Origin: a virus
Taxonomy: Duplodnaviria; Heunggongvirae; Uroviricota; Caudoviricetes
Length of the DNA: 9,732 nt
IMG/VR virus record: IMGVR_UViG_2703718824_000010
Span: 1-9,732 of that record
Direction: 5' to 3' (one strand)
The translations under genes were made by a program, and so were the position numbers. The notes under the pieces were generated by a model. The model had not been told where the DNA came from. It searched no databases and saw nothing but the letters and a program-made list of their open reading frames with translations. Position 1 is the first letter of the stretch; each line of letters begins with the position of its first letter. This document shows positions 1 to 9,732 of this stretch, one piece after another.

Positions 1-1
1 G

Positions 2-94
2 CAGCGGTCGGCAGGCGCTAAGGCAGAACTGGCACTGGCGGAGAAACTGGGGCATGCAGTTATTTTCCAGGAGGCAACCAGTGAGTGGGATTAA
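2..94 (+). CDS. 3' end of an upstream gene (partial, start outside window); unknown function
   Basis: Frame 2 is open from the window edge to TAA at 92..94. It competes with the 5' end of the next ORF, so only one of the two readings is real here. Confidence 0.3.
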   Translation, partial: QRSAGAKAELALAEKLGHAVIFQEATSEWD

Positions 95-425
95 TTATCA
101 GGCGCTGCGTGAGGCGGCACAAAACTATCAGTCGATGCTGGCGTGGTATCAGGAGAAACCAGACAGTCCAAACGCTGAGCAGGATTGTGATGCAGCTTTG
201 GCTGCGTTTAAGTGTGAAATCCGTCATCGTGAAGTGGATATTATCGCTGATTTGCTGGATGAACTGGAGGAAGCAAAACAGCGTATCGACGAGCAGGAGT
301 CCCGCATAGTGAAGTTACCAGAACCATTCAAGCTGGCTAAATCATCAAGTGGATTAACGTACTACTACGCTGATGAGGTCAATGCCGCACTGACTGCTGC
401 TGGTATTCGCATAGAAGGAGAGTGA
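54..425 (+). CDS. hypothetical phage nin-region protein (123 aa; alternative GTG start at 81)
   Basis: ORF with ATG at 54 preceded by GGAGA (40..44). An alternative GTG at 81 is preceded by a better AGGAGG (69..74, 6-nt spacer). Stop TGA 423..425 sits directly before the next gene's start. No family recognised by eye. Confidence 0.6.
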   Translation: MQLFSRRQPVSGINYQALREAAQNYQSMLAWYQEKPDSPNAEQDCDAALAAFKCEIRHREVDIIADLLDELEEAKQRIDEQESRIVKLPEPFKLAKSSSGLTYYYADEVNAALTAAGIRIEGE

Positions 426-426
426 G

Positions 427-795
427 ATGACCACTATTACCAAAGAGCGACTGCAATGGCTGGCTAACATTTCTGGCCGCGATGACATTGACGATATAGA
501 CGGCGGTGAAATTCGTGAGCTGGCGCTTATCGCACTGGCATCGCTGGAAGCAGAGCCAGTGGCAAAGATTATAGCTCATTACCCATTAGGAGTTGACGTA
601 GGCAAACAAAAGTTCGTACAGGCCATTGGAGAGCTTCCTGACTTTGGCGGATATCTATTTGCCGTCCCGCCAGCGCTGGTAGTGCCTGATAAGTCGCCGC
701 GTGAATACATAAGAGGTTGGCCTCTTGCGCATAGTGATTATGCTGAAGGATGGAACGATTGCCGTGCTGCAATGCTTAATGGAGATAAATCATGA
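427..795 (+). CDS. hypothetical phage protein (122 aa)
   Basis: ATG 427 follows the upstream stop by 1 nt and is preceded by AAGGAG (415..420). Acidic N-terminal region. The stop overlaps the next start (ATGA at 792..795). Confidence 0.7.
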   Translation: MTTITKERLQWLANISGRDDIDDIDGGEIRELALIALASLEAEPVAKIIAHYPLGVDVGKQKFVQAIGELPDFGGYLFAVPPALVVPDKSPREYIRGWPLAHSDYAEGWNDCRAAMLNGDKS

Positions 796-1145
796 TTGAT
801 CGAACCAAACTGGAGCACATCCTCGAATATGCCAGGCAGCAGAGGCATATTGGTCAGCATTGTAAAATTCCACCAGGAGATATGGTTGAAATCATGGAGA
901 TTGCCATGTGCAAGGCTGGCAATTCTCCGGTAACTCCGGATGGTTGGATAAGCTGTAGTGAGCGAATGCCGCCAGTTGGTGTTGATGTACAACTGTTTGT
1001 GTCCAGCACGGGGGAACAGTTTACAGGTTTTAACCTGGATAATACGGGTGACTTCCAGTATGCGCAGTGTTTCGGTGCGCCTATCGTGTGTGAAGCCACA
1101 CACTGGATGCCGCTACCAGAACCGCCGAAGGAGGTGCGCCAATGA
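792..1145 (+). CDS. DUF551-like phage protein (117 aa)
   Basis: ATG 792 overlaps the upstream stop, with GGAGA at 782..786. The C-terminal THWMPLPEPPK matches my recollection of DUF551 prophage proteins; this is recalled, not searched. Confidence 0.65.
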   Translation: MIDRTKLEHILEYARQQRHIGQHCKIPPGDMVEIMEIAMCKAGNSPVTPDGWISCSERMPPVGVDVQLFVSSTGEQFTGFNLDNTGDFQYAQCFGAPIVCEATHWMPLPEPPKEVRQ

Positions 1146-1225
1146 GCTGGCCTGAGGCCTTCTCAAATGTTGGTATTGCAATGGCGGTGGCGCTGGTGGT
1201 GTATTCGATTTGCCGCTGGGGATAA
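1142..1225 (+). CDS. small hydrophobic peptide, 27 aa (MSWPEAFSNVGIAMAVALVVYSICRWG), putative single-pass membrane peptide
   Basis: Strong SD AAGGAGG (1128..1134), 7-nt spacer, ATG 1142 overlapping the upstream TGA (ATGA coupling). Hydrophobic core consistent with one transmembrane helix. Below the 60-aa cutoff of the ORF track. Confidence 0.45.
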   Translation: MSWPEAFSNVGIAMAVALVVYSICRWG

Positions 1226-1317
1226 AAACGGTTTGCGGGGAAAGAAGAGTTAAGTAGAATTGCTGCGGGTGCTTGAGGCTGTCTGCCTCGGGCATGCCGC
1301 CGTAAGGCAGACAGAGA

Positions 1318-1395
1318 AAAGCCCCAGTTAACATTACGCGTCTTGCAGGACGCTTAACATTAATCTGAGGCCCAATCTATGCTTCACAAACGTAG
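1318..1395 (-). ncRNA. candidate Sok-like antisense RNA opposite the mok start region
   Basis: Minus strand has a possible promoter (TTGCCT, 17 nt, TAACCT) right of the mok start and an imperfect hairpin followed by a U-run (GGGGCUUUUCUCUG) ending near 1320. Placed by analogy to hok/sok; boundaries approximate. Confidence 0.3.
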
Positions 1396-1591
1396 GTTAG
1401 CCTCTTACGTGCCGAAAGGCAAGGAGAAGCAGGCTATGAAGCAGCAAAAGGCGATGTTAATCGCCCTGATCGTCATCTGTATTACCGTTGTTGTGACGGC
1501 ACTGGTAACGAGGAAAGACCTCTGCGAGGTACGAATCCGAACCGGCCAGACGGAGGTTGCTGTCTTCGTAGACTACGAATCTGAGAAGTAA
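1379..1591 (+). CDS. Mok-like in-frame N-terminal extension of hok (70 aa)
   Basis: ATG 1379 is in frame with hok and adds 19 codons (MLHKRRLASYVPKGKEKQA), the arrangement recalled for chromosomal mok/hok pairs. Weak SD CTGAGG upstream. Confidence 0.45.
   Translation: MLHKRRLASYVPKGKEKQAMKQQKAMLIALIVICITVVVTALVTRKDLCEVRIRTGQTEVAVFVDYESEK
1436..1591 (+). CDS. hok: Hok/Gef family type I toxin (51 aa membrane peptide)
   Basis: MKQQKAMLIALIVICITVVVTALVTRKDLCEVRIRTGQTEVAVFVDYESEK: transmembrane segment followed by the TRKDLCEV.IRTGQTEVA motif characteristic of Hok/Gef/RelF. SD AAGGAGAAG (1421..1429) before ATG 1436. Confidence 0.85.
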   Translation: MKQQKAMLIALIVICITVVVTALVTRKDLCEVRIRTGQTEVAVFVDYESEK

Positions 1592-1600
1592 GAGTGACCA

Positions 1601-1622
1601 GGCGAGGGAGAAATCCCTCGCC
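1601..1622 (+). other. 9-bp stem-loop just 3' of hok (GGCGAGGGA / GAAA / TCCCTCGCC), possible mRNA 3'-end fold-back element
   Basis: Perfect 9-bp inverted repeat with a 4-nt loop, 10 nt after the hok stop. No U-run follows, so it looks more like a stabilising or fbi-like element than a classical terminator. Confidence 0.45.
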
Positions 1623-1712
1623 ACCTCTGATGTGTCAGGCATCCTCAACGCACCCGCGCTTTACCATACTGAAAATGCTGTTTGAATGTTCATTTCTGAA
1701 AGAGGACTATGA

Positions 1713-2057
1713 ATGAAAAAGGTATTGATTGCAGCACTTATTTCCGGTGTGTCTTTTGGCGTTTTTGCACAGCAGGGTGGTTTCCAGGGGCCTGAAGCAG
1801 AGCGTTCAACAGTAGCGCAGGCAAAAGAACTGAAGGATGATGCATGGGTTATCCTTGAAGGGAGCATCATTAAAAAAGTGGGTGATGAACGTTATGAGTT
1901 TCGTGACAATAGCGGGACAATTGTCACGGATATTGATGACAGCGTATGGGCCGGGCAGAATGTTTCTCCGAAAGACAAAGTAAGAATTGAGGGTGAAATT
2001 GATAAAGACCTGAGCAGTGTTGAAGTTGATGTAAAGGCACTGAAATTATTAAAGTAA
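1713..2057 (+). CDS. YgiW/YdeI (BOF, DUF388) family OB-fold periplasmic protein with signal peptide
   Basis: SD AAGAGGA before ATG 1713. N-terminal signal peptide MKKVLIAALISGVSFGVFAQQ. The mature part (GFQGP...AWVILEGSIIKKVGDERYEFRDNSGTI.V.ID...V.IEGE.D) matches the YgiW-family pattern. An intrinsic terminator follows. Confidence 0.85.
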   Translation: MKKVLIAALISGVSFGVFAQQGGFQGPEAERSTVAQAKELKDDAWVILEGSIIKKVGDERYEFRDNSGTIVTDIDDSVWAGQNVSPKDKVRIEGEIDKDLSSVEVDVKALKLLK

Positions 2058-2075
2058 CCGTCCCGGCTTGCTAAG

Positions 2076-2102
2076 CCCGTCTTACTGACGGGTTTTCTGT
2101 TT
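2076..2102 (+). terminator. rho-independent terminator after the ygiW-like gene
   Basis: CCCGTC / TTACT / GACGGG stem-loop followed by TTTTCTGTTT. Confidence 0.6.
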
Positions 2103-2179
2103 GTACATTCCAGGCGTATTGACTTACAATTCGCGCCGTCAGCCTGAACAACTGACACCTGCTGTCACCGGAGAATCCG

Positions 2180-2452
2180 ATGACACAACACATAAAATCC
2201 CACAATTCTGAAGCCGACCCGGAAATTAAGCGGGGGTGGCGTTTTCGTACGCCTCAGTATGGCTGGTTTCACTATCTGTTCTGTACGACCGATGAGGCAG
2301 ATATGCTTCAAGAGGCGTATCTGCGTCGCGGTGTCCGTGTGGAGCGGAGTCTGAACGTTGATCGTCTGACCTGGACCGTTTCTGTATATCTTCCTGTTCG
2401 CGCACATCTGCCACGAACAAATGCCTGCTACCGTCAGCGTGTCTGGAGATAA
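2180..2452 (+). CDS. hypothetical phage protein (90 aa)
   Basis: GGAGA (2170..2174), 5-nt spacer, ATG 2180. Stop TAA 2450..2452 abuts the next gene's GTG at 2454. No family recognised. Confidence 0.55.
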   Translation: MTQHIKSHNSEADPEIKRGWRFRTPQYGWFHYLFCTTDEADMLQEAYLRRGVRVERSLNVDRLTWTVSVYLPVRAHLPRTNACYRQRVWR

Positions 2453-2453
2453 T

Positions 2454-3503
2454 GTGCGGGTATTACTTCGACCTGTTCTGGTCCCGGAACTTGGCCTGGT
2501 GGTCATTAAGCCAGGTCGCGAATTACTGCCGGTTTTTCATCGCGGCAGGGTGCTGGTGGAGCCGGAACCCAAAAGCATGCGGAGTTTGCCGTCCGGGGTT
2601 GTTCCTGTCGTTTGCCAGCCGCTGGCTGAGGATAAATCATTACTGCCATTTTTCAGCAATGAACGGGTGATTCGTGCCGCTGGCGGTGCTGGTGCGCTGT
2701 CTGACTGGTTATTACGTCACGTGAAATCCTGCCAGTGGCCACATGGCGATTATCATCACAGCGAAACCGTCATTCACCGTTATGGTACCGGCGCGATGGT
2801 GTTGTGCTGGCACTGTGACAACCAGCTGCGCGACCAGACATCAGAATCACTCGATCAACTTGCTCAGCAGAATCTGGTTGCCTGGATGATTGACGTCATC
2901 CGTCATGCAATAAGCGGTACGCAGGAGAGGGAGTTATCGCTGGCCGAATTATCCTGGTGGGCGGCCTGCAATCAGGTGGTGGATGCATTACCTGAGGCAG
3001 TAGCGCGTCGTTCGCTGGGATTACCAGCGGAAAAAATCCGCTCCGTATACCGTGAGAGTGACATCGTACCGGGAGAACAGACAGCCATCAGCATACTGAA
3101 GCAGCGCACAAAAAATATTGCGCTGCCACTTCACGTCCACCAGCAACAAAATCCACCACAGAAAAAAACGGTTGTCAGTATCGCTGTTGATCCGGAGTCT
3201 CCTGAATCGTTCATGAAGCGGCCTAAACGTCGCCGTTGGGTTAATGAGAAATACACGCGCTGGGTAAAGACACAGCCGTGTGCGTGTTGTGGTAAGCCTG
3301 CTGACGATCCGCATCACCTGATTGGTCATGGTCAGGGGGGAATGGGGACAAAGGCCCACGATATTTTCACGCTACCGTTGTGCCGGGAACATCACAACGA
3401 ACTTCATGCAGACCCGCTGGAGTTTGAGAAAAAGTACGGCTCTCAGGTTGAGTTAATTTTTCGTTTTCTTGATCACGCCTTTGCAACCGGCGTGCTTGGG
3501 TAA
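2454..3503 (+). CDS. DUF968 / NinG-like prophage protein with C-terminal HNH-type Cys/His motif (349 aa from GTG 2454; the ORF track's ATG 2421 would overlap the upstream gene)
   Basis: Long ORF whose C-terminus carries CACCGKP..DPHHLIGHG.......C.EHHNELH, a zinc/HNH-like signature. GTG 2454 is preceded by GGAGA (2444..2448) and starts 2 nt after the upstream stop. Resemblance to Qin-prophage YdfU-type proteins is recalled, not searched. Confidence 0.7.
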   Translation: MRVLLRPVLVPELGLVVIKPGRELLPVFHRGRVLVEPEPKSMRSLPSGVVPVVCQPLAEDKSLLPFFSNERVIRAAGGAGALSDWLLRHVKSCQWPHGDYHHSETVIHRYGTGAMVLCWHCDNQLRDQTSESLDQLAQQNLVAWMIDVIRHAISGTQERELSLAELSWWAACNQVVDALPEAVARRSLGLPAEKIRSVYRESDIVPGEQTAISILKQRTKNIALPLHVHQQQNPPQKKTVVSIAVDPESPESFMKRPKRRRWVNEKYTRWVKTQPCACCGKPADDPHHLIGHGQGGMGTKAHDIFTLPLCREHHNELHADPLEFEKKYGSQVELIFRFLDHAFATGVLG

Positions 3504-3515
3504 AAGAGGTTACTG

Positions 3516-3878
3516 ATGCGTATAGAGTTTGTTTTGCCTTATCCGCCGACGGTGAATACTTACTGGCGACGTCGTGGCAGCACATATTTTATATCTGAGG
3601 AGGGAAAGTGCTATCGCCGGGCAGTGGCGCTTATTGTTCGCCAGCAGCGGCTGAAATTAAGCCTGTCCGGAAGGCTGGCGATAAAGGTGATTGCAGAGCC
3701 ACCGGATAAGCGCCGCCGTGACCTGGATAATATCCTGAAAGCGCCGCTGGATGCGCTGACGCATGCAGGGTTGTTAATGGACGATGAGCAGTTTGATGAA
3801 ATCAATATTGTACGTGGCCAGCCAGTATCTGGTGGACGGCTGGAGATAAGAATTACAGAGGTGGGTGTGCATGAATAA
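3516..3878 (+). CDS. rusA: RusA Holliday-junction resolvase (120 aa)
   Basis: AAGAGG before ATG 3516. The size and the motifs PPT.N.YW....G, DKRRRDLDNILKAPLDALTHAG.L.DD and GGRLEI.ITE match RusA, including the catalytic acidic-residue region. Confidence 0.9.
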   Translation: MRIEFVLPYPPTVNTYWRRRGSTYFISEEGKCYRRAVALIVRQQRLKLSLSGRLAIKVIAEPPDKRRRDLDNILKAPLDALTHAGLLMDDEQFDEINIVRGQPVSGGRLEIRITEVGVHE

Positions 3879-4560
3879 CCAGTATTTACAGTTTGTTCGT
3901 GAGCAACTCATGATTGCCACTGCGGATCTCAGTGTGTCGATAAAAGGCCAACTGGAAGCCTGGCAGGAAAATGCACTGTTCGATACAGGGCGTTACAGAC
4001 GCAAAAAAATTCGTTACCGCGATGAGGTAACCGGAAAAATGATCACGCGGGATAACCCACCGATCCCGGGTAAACAATCACTGGCGAAAGGGACGTCAAT
4101 TGCTCTGGTCAGTCCGGTTGAGTTTTCGACATCATCATGGCGACGTGCAGTTCTGGAACTGGAAGCGCATCAGAAGGCGTGGTTGTTGTGGTGTTACGGC
4201 GGAAACATTTGCTGGGAGTATCAGATTGCGATAACGCAGTGGGCGTGGAATGAATTTAATACTCAATCCGGTACCAGAAAAATAGCTGGGAAAACGCTGG
4301 AACGTCTGAAGAAGTTGATCTGGCTGGCGGCGCAAGCGGTAAAAGCTGAGCTTTTTGGTGGGGAAGGTTATGAATACCGGGATCTGGCATCACTGGTGGG
4401 AGTGACATCAAAAAACTGGTCTGAGACATTTACTGAACGCTGGGTTGCAATGAAGCACATTTTTCTACAGCTTGATAGCCAAGCTTTATTGCTTTTAACG
4501 AAAACACGTTCAAAACAAAAGACCACATTTTCACAGCAAAATATTGCAAAACTGGATTAA
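3865..4560 (+). CDS. putative late-gene antiterminator Q-like protein (231 aa; possible start at ATG 3871)
   Basis: Assigned mainly by position: immediately after rusA, and its 3' end overlaps a strong sigma70 promoter followed by a nearby terminator, the pR'/tR' arrangement. No Q zinc-finger motif could be confirmed by eye, so the family is uncertain. Confidence 0.5.
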   Translation: MCMNNQYLQFVREQLMIATADLSVSIKGQLEAWQENALFDTGRYRRKKIRYRDEVTGKMITRDNPPIPGKQSLAKGTSIALVSPVEFSTSSWRRAVLELEAHQKAWLLWCYGGNICWEYQIAITQWAWNEFNTQSGTRKIAGKTLERLKKLIWLAAQAVKAELFGGEGYEYRDLASLVGVTSKNWSETFTERWVAMKHIFLQLDSQALLLLTKTRSKQKTTFSQQNIAKLD

Positions 4561-4572
4561 AAAGCATATATT
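4544..4572 (+). promoter_or_regulatory. candidate late promoter pR' (-35 TTGCAA, 17-nt spacer, -10 TATATT)
   Basis: Near-consensus sigma70 hexamers with ideal spacing overlap the stop of the Q-like gene. The predicted start near 4579 would give a roughly 70-nt transcript ending at the terminator at 4623..4649. Confidence 0.5.
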
Positions 4573-4622
4573 TCATGTAAATCTGATATTTTGCCGATTT
4601 TGTACGCGATGGCAAAGTAAGC

Positions 4623-4649
4623 AAACCCCGCCGCCGAGCGGGTTTTTTT
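4623..4649 (+). terminator. rho-independent terminator (tR'-like)
   Basis: AAACCCCGC / CGCCGA / GCGGG followed by seven T residues. Confidence 0.7.
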
Positions 4650-4753
4650 GTTGGCTTAACAGGTTATAATGTACAGTGCGAAACTGCCTGTTCAGCAGAA
4701 TCATTTTGTTTGTAGTGGAGTTCACAAGTCGTCATTATCAGGCAAAGAGATTT

Positions 4754-5155
4754 ATGGTGTTAAAGTATCAGCCGTCTGTTCGTTCTGTTTTAATGTGTGA
4801 TTTTCGGGGAATGGTTGTTCCGGAAATAGTCAAGGTCAGGCCAGTGGTAGTCGTGTCCAGAAACAGACACAACAATCAATTGGTAACAGTGGTACCAATA
4901 AGCACTACTGAACCGATTCCTCGCAGAGATTGCCATCATGAGTTATCAGAAAACCCCATCCCTGGTAATGAGCATATTACTTGTTGGGTAAAATGTGACA
5001 TGTTGATGACGGTTTCATTGAGCCGACTGGATCGCATAAAAACTAGAACCTGGGAGGGGCGAAATTATATTGTTCCTATGATTGCGGAAGATGAGTTTGA
5101 GAATATTAAACGGGCGGTATTGCACGGGATAGGGATGGCTTATCTGTATCGATAA
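4754..5155 (+). CDS. MazF/PemK/Kid-fold protein, putative endoribonuclease toxin (133 aa), with no adjacent antitoxin gene
   Basis: AAAGAGA before ATG 4754 (the track's longer ORF from 4676 lacks an RBS). VLMCDFRGMVVPEIVKVRPVVVVSRNRHNNQLVTVVPISTTEP follows the PemK/MazF N-terminal pattern (..DF.P..G.E....RP.vVvS ... vvP.T) as recalled. Confidence 0.65.
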   Translation: MVLKYQPSVRSVLMCDFRGMVVPEIVKVRPVVVVSRNRHNNQLVTVVPISTTEPIPRRDCHHELSENPIPGNEHITCWVKCDMLMTVSLSRLDRIKTRTWEGRNYIVPMIAEDEFENIKRAVLHGIGMAYLYR

Positions 5156-5172
5156 TCGAAAACGATTATCGA
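5149..5172. repeat. perfect 10-bp inverted repeat with AAAA spacer (TCGATAATCG aaaa CGATTATCGA), operator-like palindrome overlapping the stop codon
   Basis: Read directly from the sequence. With flanks, four TCGA tetramers lie within about 30 bp. No U-run follows, so it is not a typical terminator. Confidence 0.6.
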
Positions 5173-5190
5173 ATTCGATATGAATTTATA

Positions 5191-5219
5191 TTGACACACA
5201 TAGTGTGTTGACTGATACT
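5191..5219 (+). promoter_or_regulatory. candidate sigma70 promoter (-35 TTGACA, 17-nt spacer, -10 GATACT) with AT-rich upstream flank
   Basis: Consensus -35 and acceptable -10 with an AT-rich UP-like stretch (TATGAATTTATA). It points into a leader carrying an SD and two terminators. Confidence 0.5.
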
Positions 5220-5308
5220 GTCGCTGTACCCTGATGGGACTTGTGAGACTTCCGAACTGGAAGCCAGGAGTAGCAATAAGGTGATGACAAGCCTGCTGCC
5301 CCTGTGTA

Positions 5309-5340
5309 AAAGGCACCTTAATGGTGCCTTTGTCGTTTTT
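5309..5340 (+). terminator. intrinsic terminator 1 in the leader (AAGGCACC / TTAAT / GGTGCCTT + TGTCGTTTTT)
   Basis: 8-bp perfect stem followed by a T-rich tract. Confidence 0.55.
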
Positions 5341-5350
5341 ATCAAAAGAT

Positions 5351-5375
5351 CCCCGCCACTGGCGGGTTTTTTTTT
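5351..5375 (+). terminator. intrinsic terminator 2 in the leader (CCCGCC / ACT / GGCGGG + nine T)
   Basis: GC-rich hairpin followed by nine T residues. The pair forms a tandem terminator about 90-150 nt downstream of the 5191..5219 promoter. Confidence 0.7.
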
Positions 5376-5418
5376 CAAAATATTGGTGTGTCACGTTAAC
5401 CGGAAAAAGGAAAAAGAC

Positions 5419-5616
5419 ATGCTGAAACAGCAGGATATGACAGAAACCGCCAGAGTGGTGTTTAATGAATTAAGTGCCACCGAACCGGCGACAGTCGGGG
5501 AGATTGCGCAGAATACTTATCTTTCACGTGAACGCTGCCAGTTAATACTGACCCAGCTTGTTATGGCGGGTCTGGCAGACTATCAGTTCGGTTGTTACAG
5601 ACGCCTTCAGTCCTGA
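5419..5616 (+). CDS. small winged-helix DNA-binding protein, PapI/FaeA-like (65 aa)
   Basis: ATG 5419 has only a weak AAGGA upstream. TVGEIAQNTYLSRERCQLILTQLVMAGLA resembles the PapI/FaeA recognition-helix region as recalled. The stop lies inside a terminator hairpin. An in-frame upstream GTG/ATG (5281/5284) with strong AGGAG would read through both leader terminators. Confidence 0.6.
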   Translation: MLKQQDMTETARVVFNELSATEPATVGEIAQNTYLSRERCQLILTQLVMAGLADYQFGCYRRLQS

Positions 5617-5628
5617 AGGCTTTTTTAT
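5603..5628 (+). terminator. rho-independent terminator after the small wHTH gene
   Basis: GCCTTCA / GTCC / TGAAGGC followed by TTTTTT. Confidence 0.6.
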
Positions 5629-5766
5629 TTGTGGTAAATGGGCGGCTGGTGGGTGTTAGGGGCACTCACCAGCCATCTGCTCATGCGTCCGGATCACAAG
5701 CAAACCTCAGGCCCACTGCTTTGCGCAAAAGCAGAATGAGCCTATCAGAGACAGGCTTAATGATCC

Positions 5767-6825
5767 ATGCTTAATACTGTAAAAATATCCAGTTGTGAGT
5801 TAATCAACGCCGACTGCCTGGAATTTATCCGGTCGTTACCCGAAAATTCTGTTGACCTGATAGTCACGGACCCGCCGTACTTTAAAGTGAAGCCTGAGGG
5901 CTGGGATAACCAGTGGAAGGGCGACGATGATTACCTGAAGTGGCTGGACCAGTGTCTGGCGCAGTTCTGGCGGGTGCTGAAACCTGCCGGAAGTCTTTAC
6001 CTGTTCTGTGGCCATCGCCTGGCATCTGACATTGAAATCATGATGCGTGAACGCTTCAGTGTGCTGAACCATATTATCTGGGCGAAGCCGTCCGGACGCT
6101 GGAACGGGTGCAACAAGGAAAGCCTGAGGGCGTATTTCCCCGCCACAGAGCGCATTCTGTTCGCGGAACATTATCAGGGGCCGTATCGTCCGAAAGATGC
6201 CGGGTATGAGGCGAAGGGCAGGGCACTGAAACAGCATGTGATGGCCCCGCTGATTGCTTACTTTCGTGATGCACGTGCTGCCCTGGGGATAACGGCAAAA
6301 CAGATTGCTGATGCCACAGGAAAGAAAAACATGGTGTCGCACTGGTTCAGTGCCAGTCAGTGGCAGCTACCGGACGAAAGCGATTATCTGAAATTACAGG
6401 CGCTGTTTGCCCGGGTGGCAGAAGAGAAGCATCAGCGCGGAGAACTGGAAAAGCCACATCACCAACTGGTCAGCACATACAGTGAACTGAACCGACACTA
6501 TACGGAACTGCAGAGTGAATATAAGCATCTGCGGCGGTATTTCGGTGTGACGGCGCAGGTGCCGTACACCGATGTGTGGACGCATAAACCGGTGCAGTAC
6601 TATCCCGGGAAACATCCGTGCGAAAAACCGGCAGAAATGCTGCAGCAGATAATCAGCGCGAGCAGTCGTCCGGGTGACCTGGTTGCAGATTTTTTCATGG
6701 GGTCGGGTTCGACAGTCAAAGCAGCGATGGCGCTGGGGCGTCGTGCAACTGGCGTTGAGCTGGAGACTGAACGTTTTGAGCAGACGGTCAGGGAAGTTCA
6801 GGATTTAGCCAGTCAGAACGGATGA
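5767..6825 (+). CDS. beta-class DNA N6-adenine/N4-cytosine methyltransferase (352 aa), phage Dam-like orphan methylase
   Basis: Motif IV DPPY near the N-terminus (LIVTDPPYF) and motif I FxGxG near the C-terminus (DFFMGSGSTVKAA), the beta-class order typical of the N6_N4_Mtase family. ATG 5767 is the first start after an in-frame TGA. Confidence 0.9.
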   Translation: MLNTVKISSCELINADCLEFIRSLPENSVDLIVTDPPYFKVKPEGWDNQWKGDDDYLKWLDQCLAQFWRVLKPAGSLYLFCGHRLASDIEIMMRERFSVLNHIIWAKPSGRWNGCNKESLRAYFPATERILFAEHYQGPYRPKDAGYEAKGRALKQHVMAPLIAYFRDARAALGITAKQIADATGKKNMVSHWFSASQWQLPDESDYLKLQALFARVAEEKHQRGELEKPHHQLVSTYSELNRHYTELQSEYKHLRRYFGVTAQVPYTDVWTHKPVQYYPGKHPCEKPAEMLQQIISASSRPGDLVADFFMGSGSTVKAAMALGRRATGVELETERFEQTVREVQDLASQNG

Positions 6826-6865
6826 TATTGCAGGATTAGTTACGTACCGTTATTATCCTGCGCCC

Positions 6866-6941
6866 GGCCCTTTAGCTCAGTGGTGAGAGCGAGCGACTCA
6901 TAATCGCCAGGTCGCTGGTTCAAATCCAGCAAGGGCCACCA
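6866..6941 (+). tRNA. tRNA with anticodon CAU (Met, or Ile2 if lysidine-modified; ileZ-like in Stx phages)
   Basis: Hand-folded cloverleaf: acceptor GGCCCTT/AAGGGCC, D-arm GCTC..GAGC, anticodon loop CTCATAA, T-arm GCTGG-TTCAAAT-CCAGC, encoded 3' CCA. Confidence 0.9.
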
Positions 6942-6948
6942 TCACATA

Positions 6949-7025
6949 CCGCCATTAGCTCATCGGGATAGAGCGCCAGCCTTCGAAGCTGGTTGCGCGG
7001 GGTTCGAGTCCTCGATGGCGGTCCA
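6949..7025 (+). tRNA. tRNA-Arg (anticodon UCG)
   Basis: Acceptor CCGCCAT/ATGGCGG, anticodon stem CCAGC/GCTGG with loop CTTCGAA, T-loop TTCGAGT, encoded CCA. Confidence 0.85.
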
Positions 7026-7038
7026 TTATCTGTACACT

Positions 7039-7115
7039 GCGTTGTTAGCTCAGCCGGACAGAGCAATTGCCTTCTAAGCAATCGGTCACTGGTTCGAATC
7101 CAGTACAACGCACCA
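7039..7115 (+). tRNA. tRNA-Arg (anticodon UCU)
   Basis: Acceptor GCGTTGT/ACAACGC, anticodon stem ATTGC/GCAAT with loop CTTCTAA, T-arm ACTGG-TTCGAAT-CCAGT, encoded CCA. Confidence 0.9.
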
Positions 7116-7200
7116 CACTTATTTTTCCTGGCTCGCTTTTGTGGGCCTTTTTTGCCTCCGCGCCACGCCCGGCGCATATCAACCACAGAGCCTTTCACAA

Positions 7201-8136
7201 ATGGTTTTTCAGGAGTCCAATAATCGCGATGTCGCCAGAAAATACGCAGAGTACATCACGTCCGTTCCTTTGCGTCGGTTTGTCGCTGAAAAAGTGCGGG
7301 AATATTGTGGTGATCTGCCCCTGAGTATTTTTGATGGTGCGTGTGGCTCCGGGCAACTGGAGCAGTTTCTCACGGTGGGAAGTCTGTATGCTGTGGATAT
7401 ACAGGCCTCTCCGTTGTTGCATATCCCGGATAATTTCCCGGATGCCACAGTGAAGACGGTCAATGAAAATTTCTTCAACGCCATCGATGATGTCAGTGAC
7501 ACGGACACGTTCGATTGTGTCATCATGAATCCGCCTTTTTCGCTACAGTACAAAGCACAGAGCGCGGATATCAGGGAGAAGATTTCAGCGATGATGCCTT
7601 ATAAAAAGACCTCCGGTGTTCTGGATGACGCGTTTTATGTTCTGGCGAGCATGAAGGCAAGATTTTCATTTTTTTTGTGCTTTCCCGGGGTTGGTTACAG
7701 GCGTGGTGAGCTGGCAATGCGTCAGTATTTTGGCAACCGCGTTGTTGAGTTGGTTCAGATTTCAGGCGGGTTCGCTGATACATCGGTTTCTGTATTATTC
7801 GTCATTATTGATAACGAAAAGCAAAGCGATGATGTTGTTGTTTATGGCGTCGGGTTTAATGGGGAAACTTGCAAAAAGTCAGCGCCGGTGACGGAGAAGA
7901 TTAACACAGACAACTGGAACAGGCCGTACATTGCTGAAGAGAAGGAGGTCATTGACATTGTACAGGTGACGGCTGAGTTGCTTGTAAGGCAAACAAGAAG
8001 ACGGAAACTTGAAGATGAGCATAACGCCTTTGTGTGGTCCTTAATGAGTGATGATCAGCGGACGGAGGTTTCCCGTTTTCTGTCAGTGCACGGTTTGTTT
8101 TTTGATGCCGGTTCAGGTTGTGTGCACATACGTTAA
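7201..8136 (+). CDS. gamma-order SAM-dependent N6-adenine methyltransferase-like protein (311 aa from ATG 7201; the track's ORF opens at GTG 7141, too close to the tRNA)
   Basis: Motif I FDGACGSGQLEQF (like HsdM DPACGSGGFL) lies upstream of motif IV DCVIMNPPF, the gamma-class order. No signal peptide and no Stx-like features. No obvious SD before 7201. It is short for a DNA methyltransferase with a full target-recognition domain. Confidence 0.7.
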   Translation: MVFQESNNRDVARKYAEYITSVPLRRFVAEKVREYCGDLPLSIFDGACGSGQLEQFLTVGSLYAVDIQASPLLHIPDNFPDATVKTVNENFFNAIDDVSDTDTFDCVIMNPPFSLQYKAQSADIREKISAMMPYKKTSGVLDDAFYVLASMKARFSFFLCFPGVGYRRGELAMRQYFGNRVVELVQISGGFADTSVSVLFVIIDNEKQSDDVVVYGVGFNGETCKKSAPVTEKINTDNWNRPYIAEEKEVIDIVQVTAELLVRQTRRRKLEDEHNAFVWSLMSDDQRTEVSRFLSVHGLFFDAGSGCVHIR

Positions 8137-8200
8137 ATCTGGTGCCGGTCGCTGGTTGCCGGTGTCGTGATGATTGTCTTCCTGTTGCCCCGAAAATTTT

Positions 8201-8439
8201 AAATGTCTCACAATTCAGACGGTTGACAGTTGTCTGATTTGCGGGGAGTTTGTTAAAAGAAACTGGCATGGTGAATCCCCCTGAGCGGAGGGGCATATCA
8301 GCGACAGGTGTTTGGTTACATCCCTTATCCTTTCTGTGCGGGTTCAGGTGCTGATACTGAACTCACCGGGAGGCACCCGGCACCATGCGCATGATGATAC
8401 AGATACGCAGCGTCAGCCCCTCTCCGGAGGGGCTTTTCT
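8201..8439 (+). repeat. structured non-coding module, copy A (candidate sRNA gene): conserved 5' box, two hairpins, intrinsic terminator
   Basis: Shares ordered blocks with copy B: CTCACAATTCAG, TTTGTTAAAA (extended -10-like), hairpin CCCCT-GAGCGG-AGGGG (8276..8294), CTGAACTCACCGGGAGGCACCCGGCA (hairpin 8366..8380), and terminator AGCCCCTC/TCCG/GAGGGGCT+TTTCT (8415..8439). Candidate ORFs inside are not conserved between copies. Confidence 0.5.
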
Positions 8440-8512
8440 GTGCCGGATACATCACAGTTTCTGGAACCTTGGGTACTACAGTATCAGTCAGGGTGCTATA
8501 TTTTCAGATGTG

Positions 8513-8614
8513 ATGAAAGCCTGTCAGCAGGCAGGGCGTATCGGAAATGACCCAGTAGAGAAAACGTTGACTCAGATACCGGTGCTGAGTTACCGGGAAA
8601 CCGGCATCACATGA
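8513..8614 (+). CDS. possible 33-codon small ORF (MKACQQAGRIGNDPVEKTLTQIPVLSYRETGIT), speculative
   Basis: Extended -10 TGcTATATT at 8494..8502 just upstream and a terminator just downstream, but no SD. The longer 100-aa track ORF (8312..8614) runs through the copy A hairpins and terminator and is rejected. Confidence 0.2.
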   Translation: MKACQQAGRIGNDPVEKTLTQIPVLSYRETGIT

Positions 8615-8628
8615 CCGCTATCCTTCCA

Positions 8629-8656
8629 GGCCCGTCCGCTCCGGTGGGCCTTTTTA
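8629..8656 (+). terminator. intrinsic terminator (GGCCCGTCCG / CTC / CGGTGGGCC + TTTTT)
   Basis: GC-rich imperfect stem followed by five T residues. Confidence 0.5.
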
Positions 8657-8679
8657 CTGCAGAAAACAGGTTCCCCGTT

Positions 8680-8929
8680 AAATGCTATGTTGCTCACAAT
8701 TCAGTCAGTTGAAGGTTGTCTTCCCGACTGAGAATTTGTTAAAAAATTTCTGCATGATGAATCCCCCTGTGCGGAGGGGCGGCTGGTGTACGGAATGGTC
8801 TCTGATGATCGTTAGCGAGAATGACGCGGGTTCGGTGGCACCGGGCTGAACTCACCGGGAGGCACCCGGCATCATGTAATGAACGGTACATAGCGCTACT
8901 CTTCAGCCCCTCTCCGGAGGGGCTTTCTT
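8680..8929 (+). repeat. structured non-coding module, copy B (candidate sRNA gene), paralogous to copy A
   Basis: Same block order as copy A: CTCACAATTCAG, TTTGTTAAAA, hairpin CCCCT-GTGCGG-AGGGG (8764..8780), CTGAACTCACCGGGAGGCACCCGGCA (8849..8870), terminator AGCCCCTC/TCCG/GAGGGGCT+TTCTT (8905..8929). The stretches between blocks have diverged. Confidence 0.5.
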
Positions 8930-8933
8930 ATGG

Positions 8934-8964
8934 ATAAAAAAAGCCCGCATGGTGAGATGCGGGC
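8934..8964 (-). terminator. hairpin GCCCGCAT / GGTGAG / ATGCGGGC preceded by an A-run on +, i.e. a minus-strand intrinsic terminator (or insulator)
   Basis: 8-bp perfect stem. The + strand has AAAAAAA upstream and no T-run downstream, so it would terminate leftward minus-strand transcription. Confidence 0.4.
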
Positions 8965-9161
8965 AGCAAGGAATAAACAACAAAACGTGAAGTAATCAAT
9001 TTTTCAGCTGGAGAATAATACCCGACAGTAATCACTCTGCGCAACTGCGCGGCCTTTTTCGTATTGCGGGCTGTAGTCTTCCTCCTGCCATTGTCCTGTA
9101 ACTTCCGGACTTCAGCCCGCCCCTCATCTGACTCACAACATTATCCCGACCGGGAGGATTC

Positions 9162-9732
9162 ATGGCATTTAAACACTATGACGTGGTCAGGGCGGCGTCG
9201 CCGTCAGACCTTGCGGAGCGACTGACTCAAAAACTGAAGGAGGGGTGGCAGCCATTTGGCAGTCCTGTCGCCATCACGCCTTATACCCTGATGCAGGCCA
9301 TTGCGGCGGAAGGTGATGTCACCACACCTGTGTTAGTGAAGCCGTCGGCTGGAGAAGGCACAGTAATCAGCGCCACCAGAGACCCGGAGTATTACTTTGT
9401 TGTGGTTCTGGCGGGGCAGTCAAACAGCATGGCATATGGTGAAGGCCTTCCGCTGCCGGAGACATATGACCGTCCGGACCCGCGTATTAAGCAGCTGGCG
9501 CGCCGCAGTACAGTGACACCGGGTGGTGCCGCCTGTAAGTATAACGACATTATTCCGGCGGACTATTGTCTGCATGATGTGCAGGACATGAGCCGTCTTA
9601 ACCATCCGAAAGCGGACCTGTCAAAGGGGCAGTACGGAACCGTGGGGCAGGGGCTGCATATCGCCAAAAAACTGCTGCCGTTTATACCGGCGAATGCGGG
9701 TATTTTGCTGGTTCCGTGCTGCCGTGGTGCTT
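9162..9732 (+). CDS. nanS-p: NanS-p-like sialate O-acetylesterase (N-terminal DUF1737 plus start of SGNH/SASA domain); partial, continues past the window
   Basis: GGGAGG (9152..9157) before ATG 9162. The N-terminus MAFKHYDVVRAASPSDLAERLTQKLKEGWQPFGSPVAITPY matches the DUF1737 start of Stx-prophage NanS-p/YjhS-like esterases as recalled. A GQSN block (SGNH block I) follows. Open to the window edge. Confidence 0.8.
   Translation, partial: MAFKHYDVVRAASPSDLAERLTQKLKEGWQPFGSPVAITPYTLMQAIAAEGDVTTPVLVKPSAGEGTVISATRDPEYYFVVVLAGQSNSMAYGEGLPLPETYDRPDPRIKQLARRSTVTPGGAACKYNDIIPADYCLHDVQDMSRLNHPKADLSKGQYGTVGQGLHIAKKLLPFIPANAGILLVPCCRGA

Follow-up and report, generated by a model that had tools for sequence, protein, structure and literature searches.

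What kind of control does a phage place in front of a DNA adenine methyltransferase (methylase) gene when a small winged-helix gene, a strong promoter and a run of terminators lie directly upstream of it? Positions 5191-6825 of a virus record in IMG/VR (IMGVR_UViG_2703718824_000010, positions 1 to 9,732) raise this question, and we refer to that whole 9.7 kb stretch, the DNA that was analysed, as the window. The window is a portion of a lambdoid Escherichia coli prophage and is near-identical to a prophage of strain 2012EL-2448. The original prediction, made from the letters of the window, was that a PapI/FaeA-like regulator and a Dam-like methylase form either an epigenetic switch or a controller for the methylase. 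We conclude that the region is probably the head of a lambdoid late operon, with a methylase of the M.EcoGII type as part of its cargo. The features that bear on this conclusion are as follows.

3871-4560, plus strand: late antiterminator Q of the phage-82 type (Pfam Phage_antiter_Q 6e-90; the RefSeq annotation of a near-identical prophage agrees)
4544-4650, plus strand: phage-82-type late promoter pR', early transcribed region and intrinsic terminator (promoter and terminator scan, alignment with relatives)
5191-5219, plus strand: sigma-70-type promoter, TTGACA-17-GATACT, 10/12 matches (promoter scan)
5226-5340, plus strand: structured leader or small RNA with terminator T1 (fold z -4.76)
5309-5340, plus strand: T1, a 9-bp stem (5309-5331) and a T-tract (UUUGUCGUUUUU / TTTGTCGTTTTT); -16 kcal/mol, z -5.45
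5352-5375, plus strand: T2, a 6-bp GC stem (5352-5366) and T9; -11.9 kcal/mol, z -2.9
5419-5616, plus strand: stand-alone winged-helix protein of 65 residues, PHROG 331, a group with no assigned function (conservation, AlphaFold2 model)
5603-5626, plus strand: T3, a hairpin over the stop codon of the 65-residue gene (terminator scan, fold)
5637-5766, plus strand: near-invariant structured spacer, the 5' untranslated region (UTR) of the methylase gene (cross-genus alignment, RNAalifold, fold z)
5767-6825, plus strand: beta-class N6-adenine DNA methyltransferase, an M.EcoGII/M.EcoGI orthologue (Pfam N6_N4_Mtase 7e-44)

Much of this anatomy had been read correctly in the original prediction: the promoter, the two strong terminators in the leader, the small winged-helix gene, the adjoining beta-class phage methyltransferase and the single GATC of the leader (at 5348) all held up on closer analysis. 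T3, the 4544-4650 unit, a PemK-like gene, the structured spacer and the GATC sites at 5692 and 5762 had gone unmentioned there.

The methylase is an orthologue of M.EcoGII

The methylase carries DPPY at residues 35-38 and FMGSGST at residues 310-316, and its parts follow the beta-class order of an N-terminal DPPY, a central target-recognition domain and a C-terminal FxGxG. The best phage match to 5381-6870 is phage 1720a-02; the two methylases are 97% identical (340/352 residues), and the 1720a-02 enzyme has been named as very similar to M.EcoGII (PMC5778455). Compared with M.EcoGII itself (PMC11551740 supplement), 333/348 residues agree (96%), a value that is approximate because the M.EcoGII text was machine-read from a PDF, with reading errors. 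The gene is intact in the window and annotated as frameshifted in 2012EL-2448.

M.EcoGII is a non-specific adenine DNA methyltransferase of E. coli O104:H4 (C227-11) that is borne on a prophage (PMC5778455, Murray et al. 2018). It is not expressed in the lysogen, and its constitutive expression harms the cell (PMC5778455). The window enzyme resembles M.EcoGII and M.EcoGI in its protein sequence (~96% identity), in the beta-class order of DPPY, target-recognition domain and FxGxG, and in its prophage location; it differs in that M.EcoGII is a characterised enzyme, whereas the activity of the window allele is predicted from sequence. On this orthology the term 'Dam-like' is wrong as to specificity, and there would be no methylase motif to map onto the regulatory DNA nearby, as had been suggested, because an M.EcoGII-type enzyme is non-specific.

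The gene pair is the first cargo of late operons with unrelated antiterminators

The Q gene of the window shares 80% DNA identity with that of phage 82. Directly 3' of it lies pR' (TTGCAA-17-TATATT, 4544-4572), followed by GTAAATCTGATATTTTGCC and then by a terminator at 4627-4650 (stem 4627-4642 and a T-tract); the early transcribed region contains a -10-like GATATT. Positions 4544-4650 align base for base with the regions that follow Q in phage 434, which is annotated as Q82-like, and in a Klebsiella prophage, and the homology of the window to Q82-type phages stops near 4651. The unit has the anatomy of its phage-82 counterpart, in that a sigma-70 promoter, a -10-like element and an intrinsic terminator adjoin a Q82-type Q, and by alignment it is the pR'/qut/terminator unit that matches the window's own Q. 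In phage 82 itself, a Q-dependent pause and terminator read-through are established (PMC4914094), and from that system we infer that the window unit depends on Q. The promoter at 5191 was also considered as the late promoter pR' and was rejected, given that the Q82-type unit is 4544-4650 and that the 5191 -35 hexamer comes with an insertion carrying a PemK-like gene, described below.

The small gene and the methylase gene keep their place across phages. With Stx2a phages, the window shares homology from 5381 on, just past T2. In the Stx2a_1447 phage the order is a short Q, two reverse genes, a terminator, the small gene, the methylase gene, ileZ-argN-argO and stx2AB. A Klebsiella prophage has a Q82-type Q, 194 bp, the small gene, ~150 bp, the methylase gene and a holin gene, and Salmonella and phage mEp460 have a lambda-type Q, one open reading frame (ORF), the small gene, the methylase gene and lysis genes. 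A Providencia phage has Q, the small gene and the methylase gene. Because this order recurs with Q82-type, lambda-type and short Q genes, at least three unrelated types of Q have the pair as the first cargo of their late operon. Methylase homologues with 55-56% identity to the window enzyme occur in phage N15 (L207 1276-2589), after an annotated promoter and terminator and before the holin gene, and in Aeromonas phage phiARM81ld (L087 1001-2195; 55% identity), as the first gene before the holin gene; the phiARM81ld gene is preceded by one that matches Pfam Zn_ribbon_Com above threshold.

The terminators fit the same picture. By position, T2 is homologous to the late terminator tR' found in front of this gene pair in Stx2a phages, as judged from an alignment with 2012EL-2448, TUM1881 and the Stx2a_1447 phage, in which the TUM1881 stem is altered and the hairpin kept. 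Right after the U-tract of T2 (5375/5376 versus L002 6745-6825) the window is missing 79 bp that are present in the near-identical prophages of 2012EL-2448 and TUM1881 and in Stx2a phages. In the E. coli group the 5603-5626 hairpin qualifies as a third intrinsic terminator because a U-tract is present; in other genera the hairpin is kept with compensatory changes, and the U-tract is weak. Terminator-like sites are enriched in 4400-7200, with 10 found versus 2.8 +/- 2.0 expected, and four intrinsic terminators lie between Q and the methylase gene.

A near-invariant structured spacer links the two genes

Across E. coli, Klebsiella, Salmonella and Providencia, conservation in the ~150 bp between the 65-residue gene and the methylase gene exceeds that of the two genes themselves. 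This stretch holds an invariant 21-mer (AATGGGCGGCTGGTGGGTGTT, 5637-5657) that includes a Chi octamer (5645-5652). Chi sites in the window as a whole number three on the plus strand (1192, 2552 and 5645) and one on the minus strand (3137). Folding predicts a long hairpin at ~5638-5684 (-31.6 kcal/mol, z -4.7) and a long-range helix (-29 kcal/mol, z -4.1) in which GGAUCAcAAGC, from 5692, pairs with GCUUaaUGAUCC, ending at 5766, so that the helix takes in the bases just 5' of the methylase ATG. No Shine-Dalgarno sequence was found upstream of the methylase start at 5767, and an Rfam search of 5637-5766 gave no match. In the long hairpin the left arm is invariant and the variation in the right arm keeps G-U pairing, a pattern that holds for the plus strand only. 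The long-range helix is backed by a few compensatory changes; with so little sequence variation in the spacer, covariation is sparse.

Small gene, spacer and methylase gene are linked as a three-part cassette. An 18-mer of the spacer marks 119 IMG/VR loci with sufficient flank; both genes are present in 107 of them, the small gene alone in 8 and the methylase gene alone in 3-4. This linkage strengthens the idea that the small protein is a controller for the methylase, which is the half of the original proposal that survives; the switch half does not. M.EcoGII is described in PMC5778455 without an upstream winged-helix gene, a conserved spacer or a position at the head of a late operon, and our search of the literature on the regulation of M.EcoGII-type genes found nothing.

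The 65-residue protein is a winged helix outside the PapI/FaeA family

The 65-residue ORF differs from its Klebsiella counterpart by 28 synonymous and 11 non-synonymous codon changes and from its Salmonella counterpart by 24 and 6; because synonymous changes outnumber non-synonymous ones, we take it to be a real gene under purifying selection. Its AlphaFold2 model (predicted local distance difference test score 89) has three helices and a beta-hairpin. Close homologues number in the hundreds in Enterobacteriaceae prophages, and the helix-3 motif RCQL(I/L)LTQ is kept even in variants with 48-52% identity. Pfam returned only sub-threshold matches to generic winged-helix families (TrmB at 1.2e-3, MarR_2, HTH_24 and DprA_WH), and Foldseek against the PDB aligned the model with the winged-helix domains of O-methyltransferases, IclR and MarR regulators and SelB. 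The protein has no match to Zn_ribbon_Com, its fold being a winged helix. An exhaustive search of 1.84 billion cluster representatives found 66 relatives, all of phage type, and no link to a characterised family. On its predicted structure, the protein is a generic minimal winged helix.

These results bear directly on the proposal of a heritable on/off switch at the 5191 promoter, in which a PapI/FaeA-type co-regulator would act together with site-specific adenine methylation. In its favour are the PapI-like size of the small protein, a winged helix that stands alone, and its place beside an adenine methylase. However, the resemblance to PapI/FaeA claimed for the recognition helix was not borne out: Pfam FaeA matched 0 of 22 family members, even at E <= 10, and hhalign placed the family profile against PapI (a sequence verified against PDB 2HTJ) with 1.2% probability over 27 columns, corresponding to the generic helix-2/helix-3 pattern, with a BLASTP E value of 0.13. 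That the small protein does not classify as PapI/FaeA-like is the very outcome that the original prediction had named as refuting it. The 65-residue family is moreover narrow and restricted to phages. By orthology the methylase would be non-specific and silent in the lysogen, and could therefore not sustain a heritable pattern. GATC sites are fewer in the window than base composition predicts (19 versus ~37 expected), with the site at 5348 the only one in the leader and two further sites at 5692 and 5762. Compared with PapI, FaeA and PefI, which work with Dam and Lrp, the window is without family membership, paired GATC sites, Lrp sites and a fimbrial operon, and its methylase differs in being non-specific and, judging by its relatives, confined to the lytic phase. 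Finally, the promoter and leader assort independently of the gene pair, as shown below. We regard a switch of this kind as very improbable.

The winged-helix protein as a possible gate for the methylase

A different role for the protein is suggested by the cassette itself. We conjecture, tentatively, that the winged-helix protein gates expression of the methylase through the near-invariant structured spacer, as Com does for mom in phage Mu. In a fuller form of this idea, which we hold to be possible though doubtful, the winged helix and the Chi-bearing spacer would make up a dedicated gate that permits translation or transcription of a toxic, genome-wide methylase only in the late lytic phase.

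The cassette is like com-mom in that a late, potentially toxic DNA-modification gene stands behind a small regulatory gene and in that the translation start of the modification gene lies within RNA secondary structure, which is predicted here; in addition, a true Com-like gene stands before the methylase homologue of the Aeromonas phage. It is unlike com-mom in that the window protein is a winged helix and Com a zinc ribbon, so that the analogy would be functional only, and in that Mom is not a methyltransferase. The controller (C) proteins of restriction-modification systems offer a second comparison, being small proteins of DNA-binding type that are encoded just upstream of a modification gene and plausibly time its expression. 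C proteins, however, have an Xre-type helix-turn-helix, act with C-boxes and mainly control the restriction gene, whereas the window has a winged helix and no restriction gene.

Several observations tell against gating through the spacer. The net charge of the 65-residue protein is ~-1, which is odd for a nucleic-acid binder. Conservation of the spacer could reflect a function at the DNA level, as Chi or as an operator. Among the loci bearing the spacer, 3-4 have the methylase gene and no small gene, and 8 have the small gene and no intact methylase gene.

The protein could also be a conventional DNA-binding factor, similar to a C protein, that acts on the inverted repeat GGCTGG...CCAGCC or on the 21-mer as double-stranded DNA and represses or times transcription of the methylase gene or of a hidden promoter in the spacer. 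Winged helices mostly bind DNA, and the best sub-threshold Pfam matches (TrmB, MarR, DprA_WH) point the same way; an invariant helix 3 is found beside an invariant DNA element, and the spacer contains a 12-bp inverted repeat. However, 5590-5790 has no plus-strand promoter-like site, the protein is not an Xre-type C protein, and an invariant left arm with a right arm that keeps G-U pairing suggests RNA rather than a symmetric operator. The net charge counts here as well. We consider a factor of this kind unlikely.

The 5191 leader is found with and without the methylase

Two further features lie upstream of the 5191 promoter.

4754-5155, plus strand: PemK/MazF-like gene (Pfam PemK_toxin 8e-14, cut-off 23.1 bits; PHROG 15698)
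5150-5179, no strand assigned: overlapping palindromes (CGATAATCG-AAAA-CGATTATCG; ATCGAATTCGAT) upstream of the 5191 promoter (direct sequence reading)

Promoter-like sites in 4400-7200 are not above chance, with 4 found versus 3.4 expected. The hexamers at 5191 are nevertheless kept, as TTGACT ... AATACT, in two relatives (L027 and L038) in which the promoter spacer is unrelated and the PemK neighbour is only 76% identical, and because of this conservation despite an unrelated spacer we argue that the promoter is functional. The RNA that follows would fold into hairpins at 5226-5240, 5249-5263 and 5265-5304, the third with an invariant loop, GGUGAUGACAAGCC, at 5280-5293. It occurs in 19 sequence variants in E. 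coli-type prophages, and compensatory changes were seen at 5 of its 31 pairs when 10 variants were compared. An Rfam covariance search of 5226-5375 returned no family (the best score was isrK, 19.8 bits versus a gathering score of 50, covering terminators only), blastn of 5130-5380 against the phage collection gave no match, and a scan of species-representative genomes with the leader pattern gave one chance hit only. StxS was tried as the identity of this RNA and rejected, the O157 genomes being without a match.

The leader body (5229-5375) is shared with other E. coli prophages, where four settings were seen. Strain E9 has it directly behind a lambda-like pR' (TTGATT-16-TAAATT with AACGATGGG), and strain S19-651 behind the pR'82 unit. 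L027 and L038 have it after the 76%-identical PemK gene and the conserved promoter, with a holin gene next and no methylase. In strain A34 (L017) it lies upstream of a ParDE module; this locus (E. coli A34; 3310-3370 and 3501-3606) also has a second, partial T1-like hairpin (GGTACCGTAATGGTGCCTTTGTCAT) ~200 bp upstream of the leader homologue. The gene pair, for its part, occurs without the 5191 leader in Klebsiella, Salmonella and Stx2a phages, behind unrelated late promoters. Judged by these arrangements, the 5191 leader is a separate module that is found elsewhere without the methylase. The 'tandem-terminator leader' is a composite, because T1 closes a mobile small-RNA or leader module and T2 is the resident late terminator.

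The same settings decide the case of a leader dedicated to the winged-helix and methylase genes, in which the 5191 promoter with T1 and T2 would serve as a regulated attenuator or a riboswitch-like element. Such a leader is suggested by the strong promoter, by the highly structured and conserved RNA that follows it, and by its place directly upstream of the pair in the window, where the original prediction had taken promoter and terminators as belonging to these genes. That assignment fails on a leader that precedes a holin gene in L027 and ParDE in L017, stands behind a lambda-type pR' in E9 and is without the -35 in S19-651, and on gene pairs that do without it; nor is an alternative antiterminator fold evident, or an Rfam match. 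A dedicated attenuator is, in our judgement, highly unlikely.

The PemK-like gene lies inside an indel (~4703-5198), a block that is absent from the otherwise collinear prophage of strain S19-651 (L015). Because 4703-5198 is absent there, S19-651 has neither PemK nor the TTGACA -35, which arrives with the PemK block. The gene likely starts at 4754 rather than at the annotated 4811, given that the 76%-identical relative (L027) conserves the N-terminal residues. The gene has the toxin domain of a type II toxin-antitoxin system and lacks the adjacent, co-transcribed antitoxin, no suitable ORF for a protein antitoxin being present between Q and PemK or just 3' of PemK. A perfect TATAAT is found at 4666-4671. 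The palindromes at 5150-5179 are made of ATCGA units, and the spacer of the 5191 promoter contains ACACAC-ATA-GTGTGT at 5194-5208; both repeats are operator-like in appearance and are not conserved in the divergent relative L027.

These associations raise the further idea that the 5191 RNA is a regulatory small RNA of the PemK-like module, which would repress in antitoxin-like fashion by pairing with the PemK 5' UTR and would have nothing to do with the methylase. PemK, promoter and leader occur as a set in the window type and the 76%-identical relatives, and an adjacent protein antitoxin gene is missing. The loop GGUGAUGACAA finds a perfect complement of 11 nucleotides in the PemK 5' UTR of L027 and L038 (L027 ~2402-2430), with a duplex of -20.3 kcal/mol that ~2% of background windows equal, and the complementary site lies at the same distance from the ATG in the window (4730-4745) and in L027. 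In the window, however, the pairing of 5280-5293 with 4730-4745 comprises only 9 bp, two of them G-U, and at -11.9 kcal/mol is no better than background. The RNA is also found without PemK, and a toxin followed by the RNA is not the gene order of known type I or type III systems. We think it improbable that the RNA serves PemK in this way.

A model for silence in the lysogen and late expression

We return to the reading of the region as the head of a late operon. In its outline the region resembles lambdoid late control (Q, pR', the leader typified by lambda 6S RNA and StxS, and tR'): a Q82-type Q is followed by a promoter, a -10-like element and a terminator, and accessory genes lie between tR' and the lysis genes. 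It differs in having a second unit of promoter, leader and terminators (5191-5375) 3' of the first, tied to the PemK-like insertion, and in that the 5191 RNA is not homologous to StxS.

From the observed anatomy, the methylase's identity, the position kept across phages and the linkage of the cassette we propose the following course of events. In the lysogen Q would be absent, and transcripts from pR' (4544-4572) would end at the terminator at 4627-4650. At pR' of Stx phages, a constitutive promoter gives the short RNA StxS during lysogeny (PMC7547250). By analogy, the strong 5191 promoter should yield in lysogens only a short structured RNA of ~115-150 nucleotides, its transcripts ending at T1 or T2. 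T3 (5603-5626) and the structured 5' UTR without a Shine-Dalgarno sequence would insulate the methylase gene further. With terminators stacked in front of it and a structured 5' UTR, the methylase would therefore be silent in the lysogen.

Upon induction, Q would load onto RNA polymerase at pR', and the modified polymerase would pass all four terminators, leading to expression of the PemK-like gene, the 65-residue protein, the methylase, the tRNAs and the genes beyond. The 65-residue protein may then gate methylase expression via the spacer. The methylase would modify adenines of the replicating phage DNA, with no sequence specificity, before packaging, and the packaged genomes might thereby be guarded from many adenine-methylation-sensitive restriction systems of the next host.

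Certain points weigh against this model. It borrows three of its elements by inference from characterised relatives: read-through under Q, the silent state in the lysogen and the role against restriction. Some read-through from the 5191 promoter could occur in the lysogen. The non-specific activity of the methylase is assumed from 96-97% identity, the lower of these values being approximate, and a few of the differences from M.EcoGII fall in the target-recognition region.

Flanking features

Gene order in the window runs from hok/sok through a YgiW-like OB-fold gene, DUF968, RusA and Q to the PemK/MazF-like gene and the 5191-6825 unit. The hok/sok-type type I toxin-antitoxin locus is at 1267-1591, in a nin-like region, where Rfam sok scored 117.7 bits beside a Hok/Gef ORF. 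On the 3' side of 5191-6825 follow three tRNA genes, a second methyltransferase-like ORF and two copies of STnc100 RNA.

6866-7115, plus strand: three tRNA genes, with a CAT anticodon (ileZ-type), Arg-TCG and Arg-TCT (ARAGORN, Rfam, annotation of relatives)

The tRNA trio is placed as in Stx phages, between methylase and stx. The second methyltransferase-like ORF (7141-8136; Pfam N6_Mtase 1.7e-4, PHROG 6380), labelled in RefSeq as a type I restriction-modification subunit M, fills the slot after the tRNAs that stx2AB holds in Stx2a phages. The STnc100 copies, an Rfam small RNA, stand in tandem 3' of this ORF at 8237-8443 and 8723-8935 (134.9 and 164.6 bits).

Discussion

For the most part, the locus is an ordinary and well-understood arrangement, the head of a lambdoid late operon with a methylase of a known family. 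The worthwhile loose end is the conserved winged-helix partner together with the invariant structured spacer. The PapI/Dam switch is removed as a reading of this DNA, and with it any methylase motif to map.

Our analysis places the M.EcoGII family, whose enzymes are in wide use, in its natural setting, as the first cargo gene of the late operon in many enterobacterial phages, including Stx2 phages, and adds the winged-helix gene and the invariant structured spacer as two conserved partners that the literature consulted on the enzyme leaves unmentioned. A gate formed by these partners, if true, would be an undescribed control module common to the M.EcoGII-type methylases of enterobacterial phages, and possibly a case of a stand-alone winged helix that acts on mRNA structure. 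If the partners do control expression, they would explain how a genome-wide methylase can be carried safely, and they could bear on the anti-restriction capacity and host range of Stx phages.

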